Positions 2,279 to 57,526 of a DNA stretch of 64,000 bases are shown in pieces. The stretch's first letter is position 1. Every line of letters starts with the position of its first letter. The position numbers and the translations under genes were made by a program. The stretch comes from Ktedonobacteraceae bacterium (GTDB taxonomy: Bacteria; Chloroflexota; Ktedonobacteria; Ktedonobacterales; Ktedonobacteraceae), in contig DATLSI010000013.1 of assembly GCA_035534255.1 (NCBI GenBank), positions 60 to 64,059 on the forward strand. Direction: 5' to 3'. Below the pieces are notes generated by a model. It saw nothing but the letters and a program-made list of their open reading frames with translations. It did no database searches and was not told the DNA's origin.

Positions 2279-3418
2279 TCATATTTTCCACCAGTTGCTA
2301 TGCCATCTTTTAGCAGCCGCAAGCGCATCTATTGTCTCTTGCGTCAGAATGGTCATACAACGATCTACCTCTGACGAGCCTGCATACAGATCGACGATGC
2401 CCAGGTCAACGCCAACAAGCGGTTCGACGGCGGCAACCGTGCAATACGGTACATATGCCACACTATAGCCACCCTCTTGCAGCATGAGCAGGCGACCATC
2501 GCAGATTTCTTCTGCCAGGTCAAACAGTAAGGTGGATATTGCCCTGAAACCGTCCATCGTAAGCATATTCTGAGCAAGCGGATCTAGCCAGTTCGCATCC
2601 TGCCCGGCGGAGATGATGATTAGTTGTGGGCGGTATTGCAGTCCAATGGGTAGCACCAATTGTTCGAAAGCGGCCCGATAACCCCTGTCGCCTGTGCCAG
2701 CCGACAGCGGGATGTTGACGGTATAGCCTGCTCCCGCGCCGCTGCCCACCTGTTCAAGCTCGCCTGATAGTTTGGGATACCAGTTGTGCTGGTGTAGCGA
2801 GACAAATAGCACTCCGGGATCTGCATAAAAGGCATCCTGGGTACCGTTGCCATGATGCACGTCCCAGTCCACGATCATGATTCGTTCCAGGCCAAATACG
2901 TTGCGGGCATAATGCGCGGCGATGGCGGCATTATTAAAAACACAGAAGCCCATGGCGCGATTGCTCATCGCGTGATGCCCAGGAGGGCGCAAGAGCGCGT
3001 AGGTGTTGCGCACTTCGCCCTGCATGATAGCTCGCGCTCCGTTCATAGCTCCGCCCGCCGCGTAGATTGCCGCGTCAAATGAACCAGGGCTGAGCGGTGT
3101 ATCGCTCTCAATTTCTCCCCAAATACCCTTCATCGGTCCACCCGCAACGTGGGCGCGCACGCCTTCGATATAGGCGCGGGTATGATAGACCGCCAGTTCA
3201 TCCTCGGTGGCCGCGCGCGCAGGGATTGAGTGCATCATAGCGCTCAGGCCCGACCCATCAAGAAATTCTTTAATGCGGCTCGTGATGGTCGTCGAGGAAG
3301 GATGACCTTCAGGAGAGGTTGCAAATGATCCGTTGCGCATGACTACAGTAGCCTGCGCGCCGGTATCATGCCCCAAGAAGCGTTCATCGAAAACGAGGCC
3401 GGTGCGATGAGTGGGCAT
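2279..3418 (-). CDS. histone deacetylase-family (class II HDAC / AcuC-like) deacetylase
   Basis: Motifs PPGHHA, DWDVHHGNGTQ and EGGY. Confidence 0.9.
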   Translation of the reverse strand: MPTHRTGLVFDERFLGHDTGAQATVVMRNGSFATSPEGHPSSTTITSRIKEFLDGSGLSAMMHSIPARAATEDELAVYHTRAYIEGVRAHVAGGPMKGIWGEIESDTPLSPGSFDAAIYAAGGAMNGARAIMQGEVRNTYALLRPPGHHAMSNRAMGFCVFNNAAIAAHYARNVFGLERIMIVDWDVHHGNGTQDAFYADPGVLFVSLHQHNWYPKLSGELEQVGSGAGAGYTVNIPLSAGTGDRGYRAAFEQLVLPIGLQYRPQLIIISAGQDANWLDPLAQNMLTMDGFRAISTLLFDLAEEICDGRLLMLQEGGYSVAYVPYCTVAAVEPLVGVDLGIVDLYAGSSEVDRCMTILTQETIDALAAAKRWHSNWWKI

Positions 3419-3563
3419 TACAAACGATCCTTTCTGATGCAGGGGTTCTTGTCATAGAAGTCAAGTTTGGTCAAACAGAAACTTGCGCTAACATCATATG
3501 ATATCCTTAAAATGGCTTTCAACTTGTTGCATAGAGGACTGTAAAATGTTAGTATAGCAAATC

Positions 3564-15631: not shown

Positions 15632-15905
15632 GCAGAAGCAATGAAGGAACAAGTAAGCCACCCGCACCTGTCAGAGAGAGTCCGTGTATGGTGCAAACGG
15701 ATACAGGAAGTGCGCTGAATATCACTCCTCAGCTTCCCGGTTGAAACAGTTAAAGCGTAGGCCGGGCCGGAACCTTTCCGTTACCATGAAGGATAATATC
15801 AAATGAGTGAGCTACTCTATCTTTTATGCTAGATAGCTAATCAGGGTGGTACCACGGGAGATTCTCTCGTCCCTTTATGACGAATATAGGCGACGAGATT
15901 TTTTT
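15632..15905 (+). promoter_or_regulatory. T-box riboswitch leader, Ile specifier (AUC)
   Basis: AG bulge AGAGAGAG (15673-15680) and distal loop TGGTGCAAA (15689-15697). Specifier loop GAAT-ATC-A with ATC at 15721-15723. T-box motif GGGTGGTACCACGGGA (15844-15859). A terminator follows. The 5' boundary is approximate. Confidence 0.85.
15865..15905 (+). terminator. intrinsic terminator of the T-box expression platform
   Basis: TCTCGTC (15865-15871) pairs with GACGAGA (15892-15898), followed by T7 (15899-15905). Confidence 0.8.
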
Positions 15906-26795: not shown

Positions 26796-26997
26796 TGACT
26801 TCCCTCGGTCTTAGCTCTACCGACCGTCTTTCCAACCCAAACAGGTAGAAAAGAGCAGTCAATTCAACTGACCCTGGGAGGCTTGTGAGGGAGACAAAAG
26901 GAGAGCAACACGGAGCAGCCTACCCCTGAGCAGGGGATAGACTCATTACTCCACCGCTTCTCTGCGACAGAGTAGATAGAATCCGCCTGTATGCTAA

Positions 26998-27156
26998 ACC
27001 TTCTCCCATCCGGACTGTACCGTCGGCTTCGGCTTTGCACCGAATCTGTCGCAAAGCTGACCATTATACATGGCAACTAAGCGGCTCGCGGGCTTGGTGA
27101 ACGTTTACGTAGACGCACCTTACCGCCGGTCGGGAATTGCACCCTGCCCCGAAGGT
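26998..27156 (-). promoter_or_regulatory. candidate cobalamin (B12) riboswitch aptamer
   Basis: Read on the minus strand. P1 is ACCUUC...GAAGGU. GGUGCAAUUCC matches GGUGnAAnUCC. CGGCGGUAAGGUGCG is close to E. coli btuB GCAGCGGUAAGG..GGUGCG. There is an internal GCCAU..AUGGUCAGC hairpin. A B12-box-like CAGUCCGGAUG lies just before the 3' P1 strand. Not confirmed with a covariance model. Confidence 0.55.
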
Positions 27157-27216
27157 CTCTATGTATAGTATGTCACATTTCCCCGGAAATTTGCAAGAGA
27201 TGATTTGTAGCTGTCT

Positions 27217-53654: not shown

Positions 53655-53896
53655 GATTGTTCCTTCTTCGTCGCCGCGTGATTGTCCATGAAAGCAGCAA
53701 GATACGCCACCGGATAGTTACGAATTTCGCCCTTCTCAATACTTTCCTTTGTCATCCGTTCAACCTCGACAAAGGGTTCATTGCCTGCTGATTTGACCCG
53801 GTCATCAAGTTCGTAGGAAACACCGATTTGTTGTAGCACCTTGAACTTGTCTGGATGCTGAAGCCCCCATTCGATATAGCGTGATGGCGGCATCAT
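53651..53896 (-). pseudogene. TetR-family regulator remnant (C-terminal ligand domain only; HTH missing)
   Basis: YIEWGLQHPDKFKVLQQ..EKGEIRNYPVAYLAAF resembles TetR_C helices. No N-terminal HTH is encoded. The 4-nt ATGA overlap with the downstream hydrolase gene is preserved. Confidence 0.5.
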
Positions 53897-54119
53897 TTTA
53901 TTGCACGACGGCGGTGGATACCGCGCCCAGACAGTCGCCGCGCTACCCACAATTATCACTGCTCTGCGTCAACGTGGTTACAGCTTAGTGACGATCCCAC
54001 AATTGCTACACGATATGGCTTCAACCGCACAAACTCCATCTGTTCGACCAACAAGTGCCATGAGCGCCACGGCACTTATGCCTATCCTCGTGGCATGGAA
54101 GCAACCTTCGCCGGCATGA
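53880..54119 (+). pseudogene. polysaccharide deacetylase C-terminal remnant
   Basis: GGIILLHDGGGYRAQTVAALPTIITALRQRGYSLVTIPQLL is the typical extreme C-terminus of NodB-type deacetylases. The frame is closed by a stop at 53877-53879, so the catalytic domain is absent. Confidence 0.65.
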
Positions 54120-54178
54120 TATAATATCTATGTCGAGGCACCCTACACTCTATTTTCGCTGAAGGTGGTGGCAAGAGC

Positions 54179-54934
54179 ATGGCGCGTATGGAAGATGTTG
54201 AGTTCAAAGAGCGGCTCTTTCTAAAAGGATATCCATTTAGCCACTACAGTCCGCGCCCAGGCGACCCCAGAGCAAACGCGGTGACTCCTCTACGCAAACC
54301 GCTCTCTGCATGCATCGTTGCACTGGTAACAACAGCGGGGCTGAGCCTACCGGAGCAACCACCTTTCGATCTCACCATTAGAAATGGCGATAGCTCATTT
54401 CGCGAAATTCCTTCCGACATCTCACCACAACTCCTGGAAATGAACCAGCGCAGCTGGTCGTTCGACCAGACAGGCATATTGCGCGACCGCAACCTTACTT
54501 TTCCTCTCGACCGCCTGCGAGAAATGCAGCAGCGAGGGGAAATTGGCGCGCTCTCCCCCCATAGCTATAGCTTCATGGGTTCAATCGTGGGACCATCCAG
54601 ACTGATGACAGAGTCAGCCCCCGCAGTAGCACGGCGGCTCAAAGCTGACAACGTCGATGTTGTGCTGCTGACGCCTGTTTGACCCATGTGCAATCAGTCC
54701 GTGGGATTGATACAGCGCCAGATTGAATATACCGGCATCACAACGGTTTCCATTTCGTTGTTACGCGAGATAACCGAGAAAACTCGCCCTCCACGCGCCC
54801 TCTTTGTTCCTTACCCGTTGGGCTATCCGCTCGGCGAACCCAATAACGCTGATCTCCAGACGCGCATCATACAAGCCGCCTTCGCGCTCCTTCCGCGCAA
54901 CGATTGCCCGGTGCTGGAAACATTTACCCCGTAG
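54179..54934 (+). CDS. GrdB-family (glycine/sarcosine/betaine reductase selenoprotein B-like) protein with in-frame UGA (candidate Sec; UxxC)
   Basis: Track ORFs 54179..54682 and 54686..54934 share one frame, split only by TGA 54680-54682. The joined 251-aa product reads VDVVLLTPV-U-PMCNQSVGL...PPRALFVPYPLGYPLG, as in GrdB-like proteins I recall. Confidence 0.6.
54683..54709 (+). promoter_or_regulatory. candidate SECIS-like hairpin immediately 3' of the UGA
   Basis: Either CCCAUG (54683-54688) pairs with CGUGGG (54700-54705), or CAAUC (54691-54695) pairs with GAUUG (54705-54709). The stems are short and no model was applied. Confidence 0.3.
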
Positions 54935-54943
54935 AGGCCAGCT

Positions 54944-56139
54944 TCAGATCCTGTGATCCAGATCTTTCCAGTAAGCCTCTCGAATGCGTGTCTTGAGCAG
55001 TTTCCCGGCTGGATTGCGTGGGAGTTCATCAACGAAGTCAACCGAACGGAGCTTCTTGTAACTGGCAAGCTGTTCAGTGCAATAGGTTATCAGTTCCTCC
55101 TCGCTGGCGTTGGCCCCCGGTCTGAGGGAGACAACCGCCTTCACTGACTCGCCCCAGTGCGCATCGGGAACGCCGATCACGGCTACGTCAAGGACAGCCG
55201 GGTGCGCGCTCAGCACGGCCTCGATTTCTGCCGGGTAAATGTTCGCGCCACCCGAAATAATCATATCTATCTTGCGGTCACAGATAAAGTAGTAGCCTTC
55301 GGAATCGCGATAGGCGATATCGCCAACCGAAAAAAACCCGTCCCGCATGCTTCTAGCCGTGGCTTCGGGCTTCTTAAAATACTGGGCCAGCGCTTCATTG
55401 CGCACCCAGATCTCTCCCGGCATGCCATCGGGAACCAGTTCGCCTGCTTCGTTGAGCAGGCGAATCTCCTGGCCTGGCGCAATTGTGCCACAGGAGCCGG
55501 ACTTTCAGCAAGCTCGTATGCCTGTACGATTGCAAGAATATTCGCAAGAGAAATCCCTTTCGGACGGTACGCGCCTTTGGGATTCCCCGTCGTCCCTGAT
55601 GTATAACTCATCGTGCTGCCGAGTGACCCTTTGCCCAGAGGCATCTCCTCACCGGCGTCTCGCACTACCTCTTCGTATCGCAGCCAGCCCGCAGGCGCTT
55701 CTCCGCCAATAGCAACAAATGTTGGCGATCCCGGCATCTCAGCCCGTGCTCTATCAACCACATCCACCAGTTCTGGAGCGACGAATACCACTTTGGCTTC
55801 GCTGTCATTCAGTACATAGGTTACTTCACGCTCGCGCAAGCGATAGTTGACAGGTACCAGAATTGCACTAATCTTTGAAGCAGCAGCCCCAATTTCGATT
55901 CCTTCGAGCGAGTTATAGACCATAACAGCAATCCTATCACCCGCGTTCGCGCCCAGTTTCCGCAGAACATTGGCAACTCGGTTGGCGCGGGCATTCAAAG
56001 CTGCATAGGTAAGCGATCGTTCGCCGCAAATTAACGCGAGCTTGTCAGGACGCGCGGCTGCCTGCATCGAAAAGACATCGATGGCTGGAGCCTGTGCGGG
56101 AACTTTATCCTGGCCTGCATTACTTCGCTGTTCTTGCAC
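54944..56139 (-). pseudogene. AMP-dependent acyl-CoA synthetase/ligase, internally deleted and frameshifted
   Basis: The N-terminal part (to YTSGTTGNPKGA, ORF 55267..56139) and the C-terminal part (GSCGTIAPGQEIRL..GEIWVRN..GDIAYRDSEGYYFICDRKIDMIISGG, frame of 54944..55423) lie in different frames. The junction is near 55490-55510. About 130-150 aa of the central domain is missing. Confidence 0.75.
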
Positions 56140-56261
56140 GGCATATTCTCCTTCTGTCTCGCCGGTTTGTTTGTACTGAAAGCAGAAAAGTGATACAATG
56201 CTATTGCAACCCCAAACAGGCGCTAATCGTATTCAATCTAACCACAATTCGAGATAACATT

Positions 56262-56639: not shown

Positions 56640-57368
56640 CTACACCATTCTGGCCACCAGCTCCTGGGCAAGGTAACTGGCTACCATGGCAGCGTTAGAA
56701 CCCGGTCCAAAACCAGCGTCATAGCCAAGTTCCTTGGCGAAGGCGTGCGAGATGCGCGGCCCACCCACGATGAACAAATAGCGTTCGCGCACACCTTCCG
56801 CCTCTGCCAGTTCGATCAATTTGGTCAGGTTATGGACATGCACATTCTTCTGTGTCACCACCTGCGAGACCAGAATAGCCTCGGCCTGCTCAGCCGCTGC
56901 TCGTCTCAATAAAGCCTCGCAGGAAACCTGTGCGCCCAGGTTCAAAGCGCGAAAGGCGGGAAAGCGTTCAAGTCCATAATTTCCCGCGAAGCCCTTGGCG
57001 TTGAAGATTGCATCGATGCCAACGGTATGCGCGTCGCTCTCGATGGCCGCACCGATCACCGTTACCTGGCGACCCAGGCGTTGCTCGATCAGTTCGTTGA
57101 TCTCGTGAAAGTCCATCTCCTCGTGTGCTAGTTCATCAACCTGAATCTGTTCAACGTCAAGCGTATGCGAACAAGCACCATAGACGACAAAAAAAGTAAA
57201 TGCTTTGTCGATGGCCTCAGTATGGGCCACCACAGGATTGCTGATGCCCATCAGCATGGCATAGCGGCGGGCAGCTTCCCGCCCACGCGCATTAAGCGGC
57301 AGTGGTAGAGTAAATGAAAGTTGGACGACTCCATCGTTGGCGGTATCGCCATAGGGTCTGATCTGCAT
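56640..57368 (-). CDS. kamE: lysine 5,6-aminomutase beta subunit-like B12-binding protein
   Basis: IRPYGDT.NDG.VQLSFTLP dimerisation motif and B12 DxHxxG motif (SDAHTVGIDA). VSQVVTQKNVH and GGPRI..AKELGYDAGFGPG follow C. sticklandii KamE as recalled. Confidence 0.8.
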   Translation of the reverse strand: MQIRPYGDTANDGVVQLSFTLPLPLNARGREAARRYAMLMGISNPVVAHTEAIDKAFTFFVVYGACSHTLDVEQIQVDELAHEEMDFHEINELIEQRLGRQVTVIGAAIESDAHTVGIDAIFNAKGFAGNYGLERFPAFRALNLGAQVSCEALLRRAAAEQAEAILVSQVVTQKNVHVHNLTKLIELAEAEGVRERYLFIVGGPRISHAFAKELGYDAGFGPGSNAAMVASYLAQELVARMV

Positions 57369-57526
57369 AGGAAGTACCTCGATGAGAAGATTATACATAC
57401 TTTACACACAGTATATCATGCCTTCGTTTTGCTATAGAAGGGTTTAAACCCGGCTATATGGTATACTTTGAACAGGCGAACCAAACGAGCGCCACATCGA
57501 TACTATCCCCGAAAGGACTACCAACT

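Follow-up and report, generated by a model that had tools for sequence, protein, structure and literature searches.

Organization of the locus

The 64,000-nucleotide (nt) stretch analysed here, which we call the window, comes from a Ktedonobacteraceae bacterium of the phylum Chloroflexota (contig DATLSI010000013.1 of assembly GCA_035534255.1), and at positions 54179-54934 it carries a gene that we predict to encode a PrdB-like selenoprotein. A list of open reading frames (ORFs) gives this gene as two pieces, 54179..54682 of 167 amino acids (aa) and 54686..54934 of 82 aa. Together the two form one frame, which runs from ATG 54179 to TAG 54932-54934, is interrupted solely by the TGA at 54680-54682 and yields a product of 251 aa. 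The residues on either side of the interruption are ...VDVVLLTPV-[UGA]-PMC-NQSVGLIQ..., and with the UGA read as selenocysteine (Sec) the motif at this site would be U168-P-M-C171 (U-x-x-C), at the position homologous to the motif of PrdB. The predicted tryptic peptide that spans the Sec site is ADNVDVVLLTPV-U-PMCNQSVGLIQR. The N-terminus MA(R/N/K) is common to the Ktedonobacteraceae orthologues and supports ATG 54179 as the start.

An original prediction, made from the letters of the window, had proposed that the two ORFs are one frame broken only by the TGA, that the joined product has 251 aa with the local residues given above, and that the UGA encodes Sec within a U-x-x-C motif. Our reading of the sequence agrees with the first two proposals, and the third is supported by the alternation of TGA and Cys at this column among the homologues and by selection on the codons downstream.

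The UGA column in homologues

Searching 5.8 billion proteins yielded 1,543 homologues; the best 120, with 71-100% identity, were inspected. Nearly all of these 120 are called as proteins of exactly 167 aa that cover 65-67% of the joined query, indicating that the gene calls of more than 100 homologues end at one and the same codon; the named members among them are metagenome-assembled genomes (MAGs) of Ktedonobacteraceae. NCBI holds the fragment from the window as a 167-aa 'glycine/sarcosine/betaine reductase selenoprotein B family protein', the Joint Genome Institute (JGI) labels homologues as 'D-proline reductase (dithiol) PrdB', and the gene sequence is identical in three independent assemblies.

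We then compared the DNA at 26 loci, which include 17 stop-bearing loci and four Cys forms. The homologous codon is TGA in 17 of the 17 stop-bearing loci, and these belong to Ktedonobacteraceae (L004-L011), a 'Heliomicrobium' MAG, Poribacteria, three Caldilineaceae, Chloroflexales, Chloroflexia, Thermodesulfobacteriota and Bariatricus. The codon is TGC (Cys) in four homologues from one Bryobacteraceae, two Verrucomicrobiota and one further MAG (L013, L015, L016 and L017). An exhaustive HMMER search of 1.84 billion cluster representatives gave 2,040 clusters at E <= 0.001, and the best 150 representatives were scored at the Sec column: 59 end exactly there, 52 carry Cys, 2 carry Trp and a minority have Ser or Gly. 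The Cys-form homologues are single chains that run through the column. Cys or TGA was found, both in the DNA loci and in the best 150 representatives, at the column where the original prediction expected Cys or Sec. Its argument that a nonsense mutation on exactly this codon would be a coincidence is strengthened as well, since TGA stands at the same codon throughout the homologues, far beyond chance.

Some gene callers on short metagenome contigs put a spurious Trp at the Sec position and thereby give full-length proteins (P0075, from positions 284-1021 of locus L005, together with P0249 and P0276). For P0075 the DNA carries TGA and its translation by genetic code table 11 differs from the database protein, which indicates a caller that assigned TGA to Trp. 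These Trp assignments stem from genetic code 4 and are artefactual, as is seen at the DNA level for P0075 and is extended by inference to P0249 and P0276.

Longer Cys-form relatives carry extra domains without a Pfam match, and one relative has a helix-turn-helix. Residues 255-314 of another Cys-form relative, P0301, give a sub-threshold match to Pfam UGSC (19.8 bits against a cut-off of 25) around a C-x-x-C. UGSC is itself a selenoprotein family with a UxxC motif that is abundant in the sea, and the match may reflect distant kinship of the two families or chance.

Selection on the codons downstream of the UGA

Among six Ktedonobacteraceae copies, with synonymous divergence (dS) from 0.2 to saturation, the ratio of nonsynonymous to synonymous divergence (dN/dS) of the 83 codons past the UGA is 0.05-0.17, compared with 0.04-0.10 for the 167 codons before it. 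Because the downstream ratios match the upstream ones at high dS, the segment past the UGA is conserved as translated protein. Consecutive parts of one curated full-length NCBIfam model of PrdB, TIGR04483, are matched by the two halves, with residues 34-165 aligned to model positions 19-145 and residues 3-69 of the downstream piece to positions 151-217, and the UGA lies in the gap between model positions 145 and 151. Neither among the ORFs of the window nor in the comparison of loci is there a conserved overlapping ORF on another frame or strand that could explain the downstream conservation.

The window copy contains no further stop or frameshift. Frameshifts occur inside the gene in MAG contigs assembled from long reads (contig_NNNNN, MFD bins; L004 10001-10800, L011 10001-10753 and L019 10001-10730), and these orthologues keep the TGA and the hairpin that follows it wherever they are readable; the frameshifts are most likely homopolymer assembly errors and not marks of pseudogenes. 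Besides these frameshifts, the orthologues show none of the further disabling mutations that the original prediction had named as a sign of decay.

A covarying hairpin downstream of the UGA

An unguided RNAalifold prediction from 17 sequences gives exactly the 8-bp helix 54693-54700/54704-54711. Across these sequences 95.6% of the cells of the helix are paired, compensatory double changes occur in five of the eight pairs, and none of 500 shuffles matches the observed level of covariation; sliding the 3' partners by 1-3 columns cuts the pairing to 28-43%. The hairpin is in register in every TGA form, where the first base of the loop is an invariant G and the next base is nearly always U. It does not form in the four Cys forms, whose energies at this place range from +4.3 to -1.8 kcal/mol, as against -5.0 to -11.7 kcal/mol in the 17 Sec forms.

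Published criteria for the bacterial selenocysteine insertion sequence (SECIS) are a loop of 3-9 nt, a stem of 4-16 bp, a minimum free energy <= -7.5 kcal/mol, a G within the first two loop positions (usually followed by G or U in the form GG or GU) and a distance of 16-37 nt between UGA and loop (PMC13188914). The element in the window falls within these ranges, with a loop of 3 nt (GUG), a stem of 8 bp and a spacing of 18 nt; the whole element has -13.0 kcal/mol in the minimum-free-energy fold, and the upper hairpin alone has -7.4 kcal/mol. In these features, including the 3-nt loop beginning with G-U, it resembles the bacterial consensus used by bSECISearch, of which Escherichia coli fdhF is the prototype. 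Unlike that likeness in form, its sequence is unrelated to the E. coli SECIS elements and its lower helix is poorly conserved, and binding by SelB is a prediction. This lower helix (54688-54691/54715-54718) is part of the minimum-free-energy fold of the window, but only 72% of its cells are paired across the homologues, and RNAalifold does not predict it from the 17 sequences.

The original prediction had placed a hairpin directly 3' of the UGA, at 54683-54705 or alternatively at 54691-54709. A covarying hairpin is indeed present 3' of the UGA; the version at 54683-54705 is unsupported by the alignment fold or by the pair counts, and the alternative was off by 2 nt. The features of the gene are collected in Table 1.

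Table 1. Features of the predicted PrdB-like selenoprotein gene (positions in the window)
Feature	Position	Strand	Basis and details
PrdB-like selenoprotein coding sequence (CDS), predicted, complete, 251 aa	54179..54934	+	Single frame, PrdB profile match, purifying selection on both halves
In-frame UGA, predicted U168 (codon 168)	54680..54682	+	TGA in 17/17 stop-bearing loci, TGC in 4 others
TGC, Cys171, presumed resolving Cys of U-x-x-C	54689..54691	+	Read from sequence; at least 90% conserved in a 30-sequence family alignment
SECIS upper hairpin, predicted	54693..54711	+	8-bp stem 54693-54700/54704-54711, apical loop GUG 54701-54703, loop 18 nt past the UGA
Putative SECIS lower helix	54688..54718	+	54688-54691 with 54715-54718, enclosing the upper hairpin; weakly supported
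Possible ribosome-binding site, purine-rich AAGGTGGTGG	54162..54171	+	7 nt upstream of the ATG; read from sequence

A PrdB-like member of the GRDB family

The protein matches Pfam GRDB (PF07355) with 36.5 bits against a gathering threshold of 22, over residues 32-165 and model positions 214-345 of 347. The Pfam model stops right before the Sec column, and for this reason the downstream ORF has no Pfam match; the model leaves out the final third of the domain and with it the resolving Cys, presumably because the sequences that went into it had been cut short at the UGA. Among curated models, TIGR04483 matches best (147.7 bits, E = 3.5e-43), over residues 34-236 and model positions 19-216 of 238, and a UxxC motif is listed for this model and has been reported for PrdB and GrdB. 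Two further models are matched below their cut-offs, TIGR01918 (selenoprotein B subfamily) with 47.3 against 65.45 and TIGR01917 (GrdB) with 39.4 against 602, and both only at model positions ~195-417 of an architecture of ~430 aa. With the GrdB, GrdF and GrdH proteins of these two models, the protein of the window shares the GRDB domain and Sec at the same column, and a GrdB-type locus in Bariatricus (L025) likewise has TGA at this column, with a hairpin. In contrast to GrdB, only the C-terminal ~200 residues of the ~430-aa models are matched, and the gene in the window has no grdA, grdE or grdC context. The GrdB-family label of the original prediction therefore holds as far as the GRDB domain is concerned, but the closest curated model is PrdB and not GrdB.

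A genuine D-proline reductase has its PrdA and PrdB genes in one cluster; D-proline is held by the pyruvoyl group of PrdA and attacked at its alpha-carbon by Sec151 of PrdB, regeneration of the enzyme falls to PrdC, and a U151C variant is inactive (PMC11229817). The gene in the window could be a PrdB of this kind whose PrdA is encoded elsewhere in the genome, as would fit the near full-length match to TIGR04483, the name that JGI gives to homologues, and a likeness to PrdB of Clostridium sticklandii and Clostridioides difficile that extends to the size of ~250 aa (251 aa here; 25.7 kDa and Sec151 in the clostridial protein), Sec at a homologous U-x-x-C, and a UGA and SECIS within the CDS. However, the score of 147.7 bits is under half of the equivalog cut-off of 300 bits and does not reach it, and whereas PrdA and PrdB are clustered in genuine systems, the gene list of the locus shows no PrdA-like or unassigned large gene within 10 kb on either side and no PrdA, PrdC or PrdH nearby. 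No neighbour is conserved across 18 loci of different phyla, and the host organisms are aerobic Ktedonobacteria of soil rather than Stickland fermenters. We consider a genuine PrdB unlikely, and because of the sub-cut-off score, the missing prd cluster, the lack of conserved context and the non-Stickland hosts, D-proline reductase activity is not expected of the PrdB-like protein.

Structural model and proposed mechanism

The structure was modelled for an orthologue, P0075, which is 57% identical to the protein of the window. The AlphaFold model (predicted local distance difference test score, pLDDT, 95.2; predicted template modelling score, pTM, 0.93) is one compact domain, in which Sec lies in a loop between strand 156-160 and helix 164-178 and the Cys lies in the first helical turn. 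This arrangement bears out the original guess, which put Sec after a beta strand, where a helix begins.

Sec is predicted to be inserted at codon 168 by the known bacterial route, which depends on SelB and a SECIS: the UGA at 54680-54682 would be decoded as Sec and not as a stop during translation, with the hairpin 54693-54711 acting as a bacterial SECIS that recruits SelB with Sec-tRNA(Sec) to the ribosome. In the finished protein, Sec168 and Cys171 would form a U-x-x-C redox centre; the resolving role presumed for Cys171 is suggested by the redox motif UxxC that has been described for PrdB and GrdB. If the protein works as genuine PrdB does, Sec168 would be the nucleophile that attacks the substrate; Cys171 would then resolve the adduct as a selenenylsulfide, to be re-reduced by a thiol or an electron-transfer partner. 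The substrate is probably not D-proline, since no pyruvoyl-bearing PrdA is nearby and the score lies below the PrdB equivalog threshold.

Selenocysteine machinery

Ktedonobacter racemifer DSM 44963 is recorded as positive for SelD, SelA and SelB and as having five selenoproteins (Peng et al. 2016, PMC5029168, Tables S1 and S2). The window contains no tRNA genes at all, tRNA-Sec was found neither in the window nor in 22 loci, and tblastn gave no match in the window to E. coli SelA, SelB or SelD, with approximate queries and with a positive control for SelB only (in L022). The statement of the original prediction that no sel genes lie in the window is thereby upheld by the tRNA scan and by tblastn.

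That positive control is a Chloroflexales MAG with a bona fide selB (TIGR00475, 343 bits against a cut-off of 242), whose end lies 375 nt before a TGA-form gene. The adjacency does not recur in two other SelB contexts, and we therefore regard it as co-occurrence and not as linkage. Between selB and the PrdB-like gene of this MAG, positions 3096-3461 hold a tandem repeat that reads ...SLTVWQSGSLTV... on one strand and ...RLPDCQTV... on the other, and that is probably an intergenic repeat array.

Alternative explanations for the in-frame UGA

A pseudogene, in which a random nonsense mutation killed a gene of the GrdB/PrdB family within a decaying region, was the alternative raised by the original prediction, and the decay of both neighbours does fit it. 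Against it stand the same TGA in more than 100 orthologues and in several phyla, the low dN/dS of the 83 codons past the TGA (0.05-0.17 at high dS, like the codons upstream), and a window copy that lacks any other stop or frameshift and is identical in three independent assemblies. We reject the pseudogene as exceedingly improbable on the conservation of the TGA and the selection downstream. The locus could also hold two genes, a 167-aa protein that stops at the TGA and an 82-aa protein that restarts at ATG 54686 (TGA-CCC-ATG): public gene calls show this split, and in Ktedonobacteraceae an ATG (Met170) does follow the TGA by 3 nt. However, Met170 is specific to the Ktedonobacteraceae, other Sec forms having GQC, GYC, GLC, PVC or GTC at this place; the Cys forms are one polypeptide through the column, the halves are consecutive parts of one PrdB model and are modelled as one compact domain (pTM 0.93), and a split would leave the covarying hairpin, and its absence from the Cys forms, unexplained. 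Two separate genes are thus highly improbable.

The UGA might instead be read through as an amino acid other than Sec, by near-cognate suppression (Trp, Cys or Arg) or by a lineage-wide reassignment. The Trp at the Sec column in three database calls (P0075, P0249 and P0276) would suit this, as would the fact that Sec machinery is seen in relatives and not in the 64-kb window of this genome. For P0075, however, the DNA has TGA and the table 11 translation disagrees with the database protein; TGA is exchanged at this column mainly with Cys, the pattern typical of Sec genes; the SECIS-type hairpin goes with the TGA forms only; and SelA, SelB and SelD are recorded for K. racemifer, the type species of the family. 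TGA is also a normal terminator in the window, where it ends 10 of 36 long ORFs, and this argues that UGA is not reassigned. Non-Sec read-through is, in our view, very unlikely.

The locus displays the sequence signatures of Sec recoding, namely a conserved TGA, a Cys/Sec column, selection downstream and a covarying SECIS-like hairpin. In a scan of in-frame TGAs with long flanks across the window, conserved flanks together with a hairpin were found only at 54680. We put at about 0.88 the probability that 54179-54934 is a single functional gene whose 251-residue product is a PrdB-like selenoprotein, with the UGA at 54680-54682 read as Sec.

Several observations count against this selenoprotein reading. 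None of selA, selB, selC and selD is present in the 64-kb window, the rest of the genome lying outside the comparison. In L027/L028 and in Oscillochloris (L029), selB and the PrdB-like gene do not adjoin as they do in the Chloroflexales MAG (L022), and when the SelB of that MAG is used as a query, all 120 matches shown are Chloroflexales at >=58% identity, a result that says nothing on the Ktedonobacteraceae. Folded as a single sequence, 54677-54740 does not exceed shuffled controls in stability (z = 0.09), and for this reason the support for a SECIS comes from conservation and covariation and not from energy; the hairpin moreover lies inside the CDS, where its conservation, including that of the loop GU of a Val codon, is partly shared with protein constraint. 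The fold has no solved structure, whether sought by sequence or by structure (0 matches at E <= 0.001, best TM ~0.3), and beyond the Ktedonobacteraceae the neighbourhoods of the 18 loci have nothing in common. The redox cycle of U168 and C171 through a selenenylsulfide is drawn wholly by analogy with PrdB.

Relation to known selenoproteins

The family catalogued as 'Proline reductase PrdB, UxxC, pfam07355' is one of the commonest selenoprotein families of the oxic surface ocean, with 42 Sec genes of the PrdB family in the Sargasso Sea survey of 2005 (PMC1088965) and 235 in the GOS survey of 2008 (PMC2398784). The PrdB selenoprotein family has also been listed in the non-Stickland genera Anaeromyxobacter and Geobacter (Zhang 2006, PMC1794560), and selenoproteins of Chloroflexi are well documented, including the five of K. 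racemifer (PMC1794560, PMC5029168). The original prediction had called a Sec protein in a Chloroflexota-like genome notable; with both the Chloroflexi selenoproteins and the PrdB family already catalogued, that judgement was overstated. The selenoprotein family is already known, and our result is an annotation correction and not a discovery.

The protein of the window is like the 'PrdB' selenoproteins of the surveys (Sargasso Sea, GOS, Zhang 2006 and Peng 2016) in its Pfam GRDB domain, its PrdB size, its UxxC motif and its occurrence outside clostridia, and on the basis of family, motif and size, and not of an alignment with the survey sequences, it most plausibly belongs with that group. The surveys treat the family as proline reductase, without addressing the missing PrdA. 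We see even odds that the stand-alone PrdB-sized GRDB proteins are a separate, PrdA-independent family of U/C-x-x-C oxidoreductases and not subunits of proline reductase. Such a family would span Ktedonobacteraceae, Caldilineaceae, Poribacteria and others, and would probably include the abundant marine 'PrdB' selenoproteins too; if so, one of the most widespread environmental selenoprotein families has stood under a wrong function for two decades. The question that follows, what role a PrdB-like selenoprotein plays without PrdA in aerobes, concerns the family as a whole and is not specific to the window.

As to the public databases, the records of the more than 100 close homologues are all truncated to 167 aa, bar a few calls with TGA as Trp. 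Because annotation stops at the UGA, these protein records lack the active-site Sec, the resolving Cys and the final third of the domain. The biological gain is modest: a predicted selenoprotein is added for soil Ktedonobacteraceae, in a gene that is kept intact as its neighbours decay.

Gene neighbourhood and other features of the window

The PrdB-like gene stands intact between two decayed neighbours. Upstream, a polysaccharide deacetylase (53880-54104, + strand) is cut to its last ~77 aa, its relatives having 326-354 aa; downstream, an AMP-binding acyl-CoA ligase (54947-56196, - strand) lacks ~125 internal residues and has a frame change near 55501-55504, its relatives having 536-584 aa. 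The lengths of the relatives confirm the decay of the flanking deacetylase and ligase that had been noted from the letters alone, and it is not an assembly error, since the same gene calls are present in three independent assemblies.

In Ktedonobacteraceae the neighbours of the PrdB-like gene are an orphan B12-binding/OAM_dimer protein, an amine oxidase and a CN-hydrolase. In the window the first of these, a 252-aa protein with OAM_dimer and B12-binding domains (56640-57398, - strand), resembles the small subunit of lysine/ornithine aminomutases; no large catalytic subunit adjoins it, and the gene is kept beside the PrdB-like gene in four loci (L001, L004, L006 and L009). Elsewhere in the window, and unrelated to the PrdB-like gene, Rfam models detect a T-box leader at 15632-15877 (+ strand, 121 bits) and a flavin mononucleotide (FMN) riboswitch at 26994-27160 (- strand, 111 bits), both above the gathering score.

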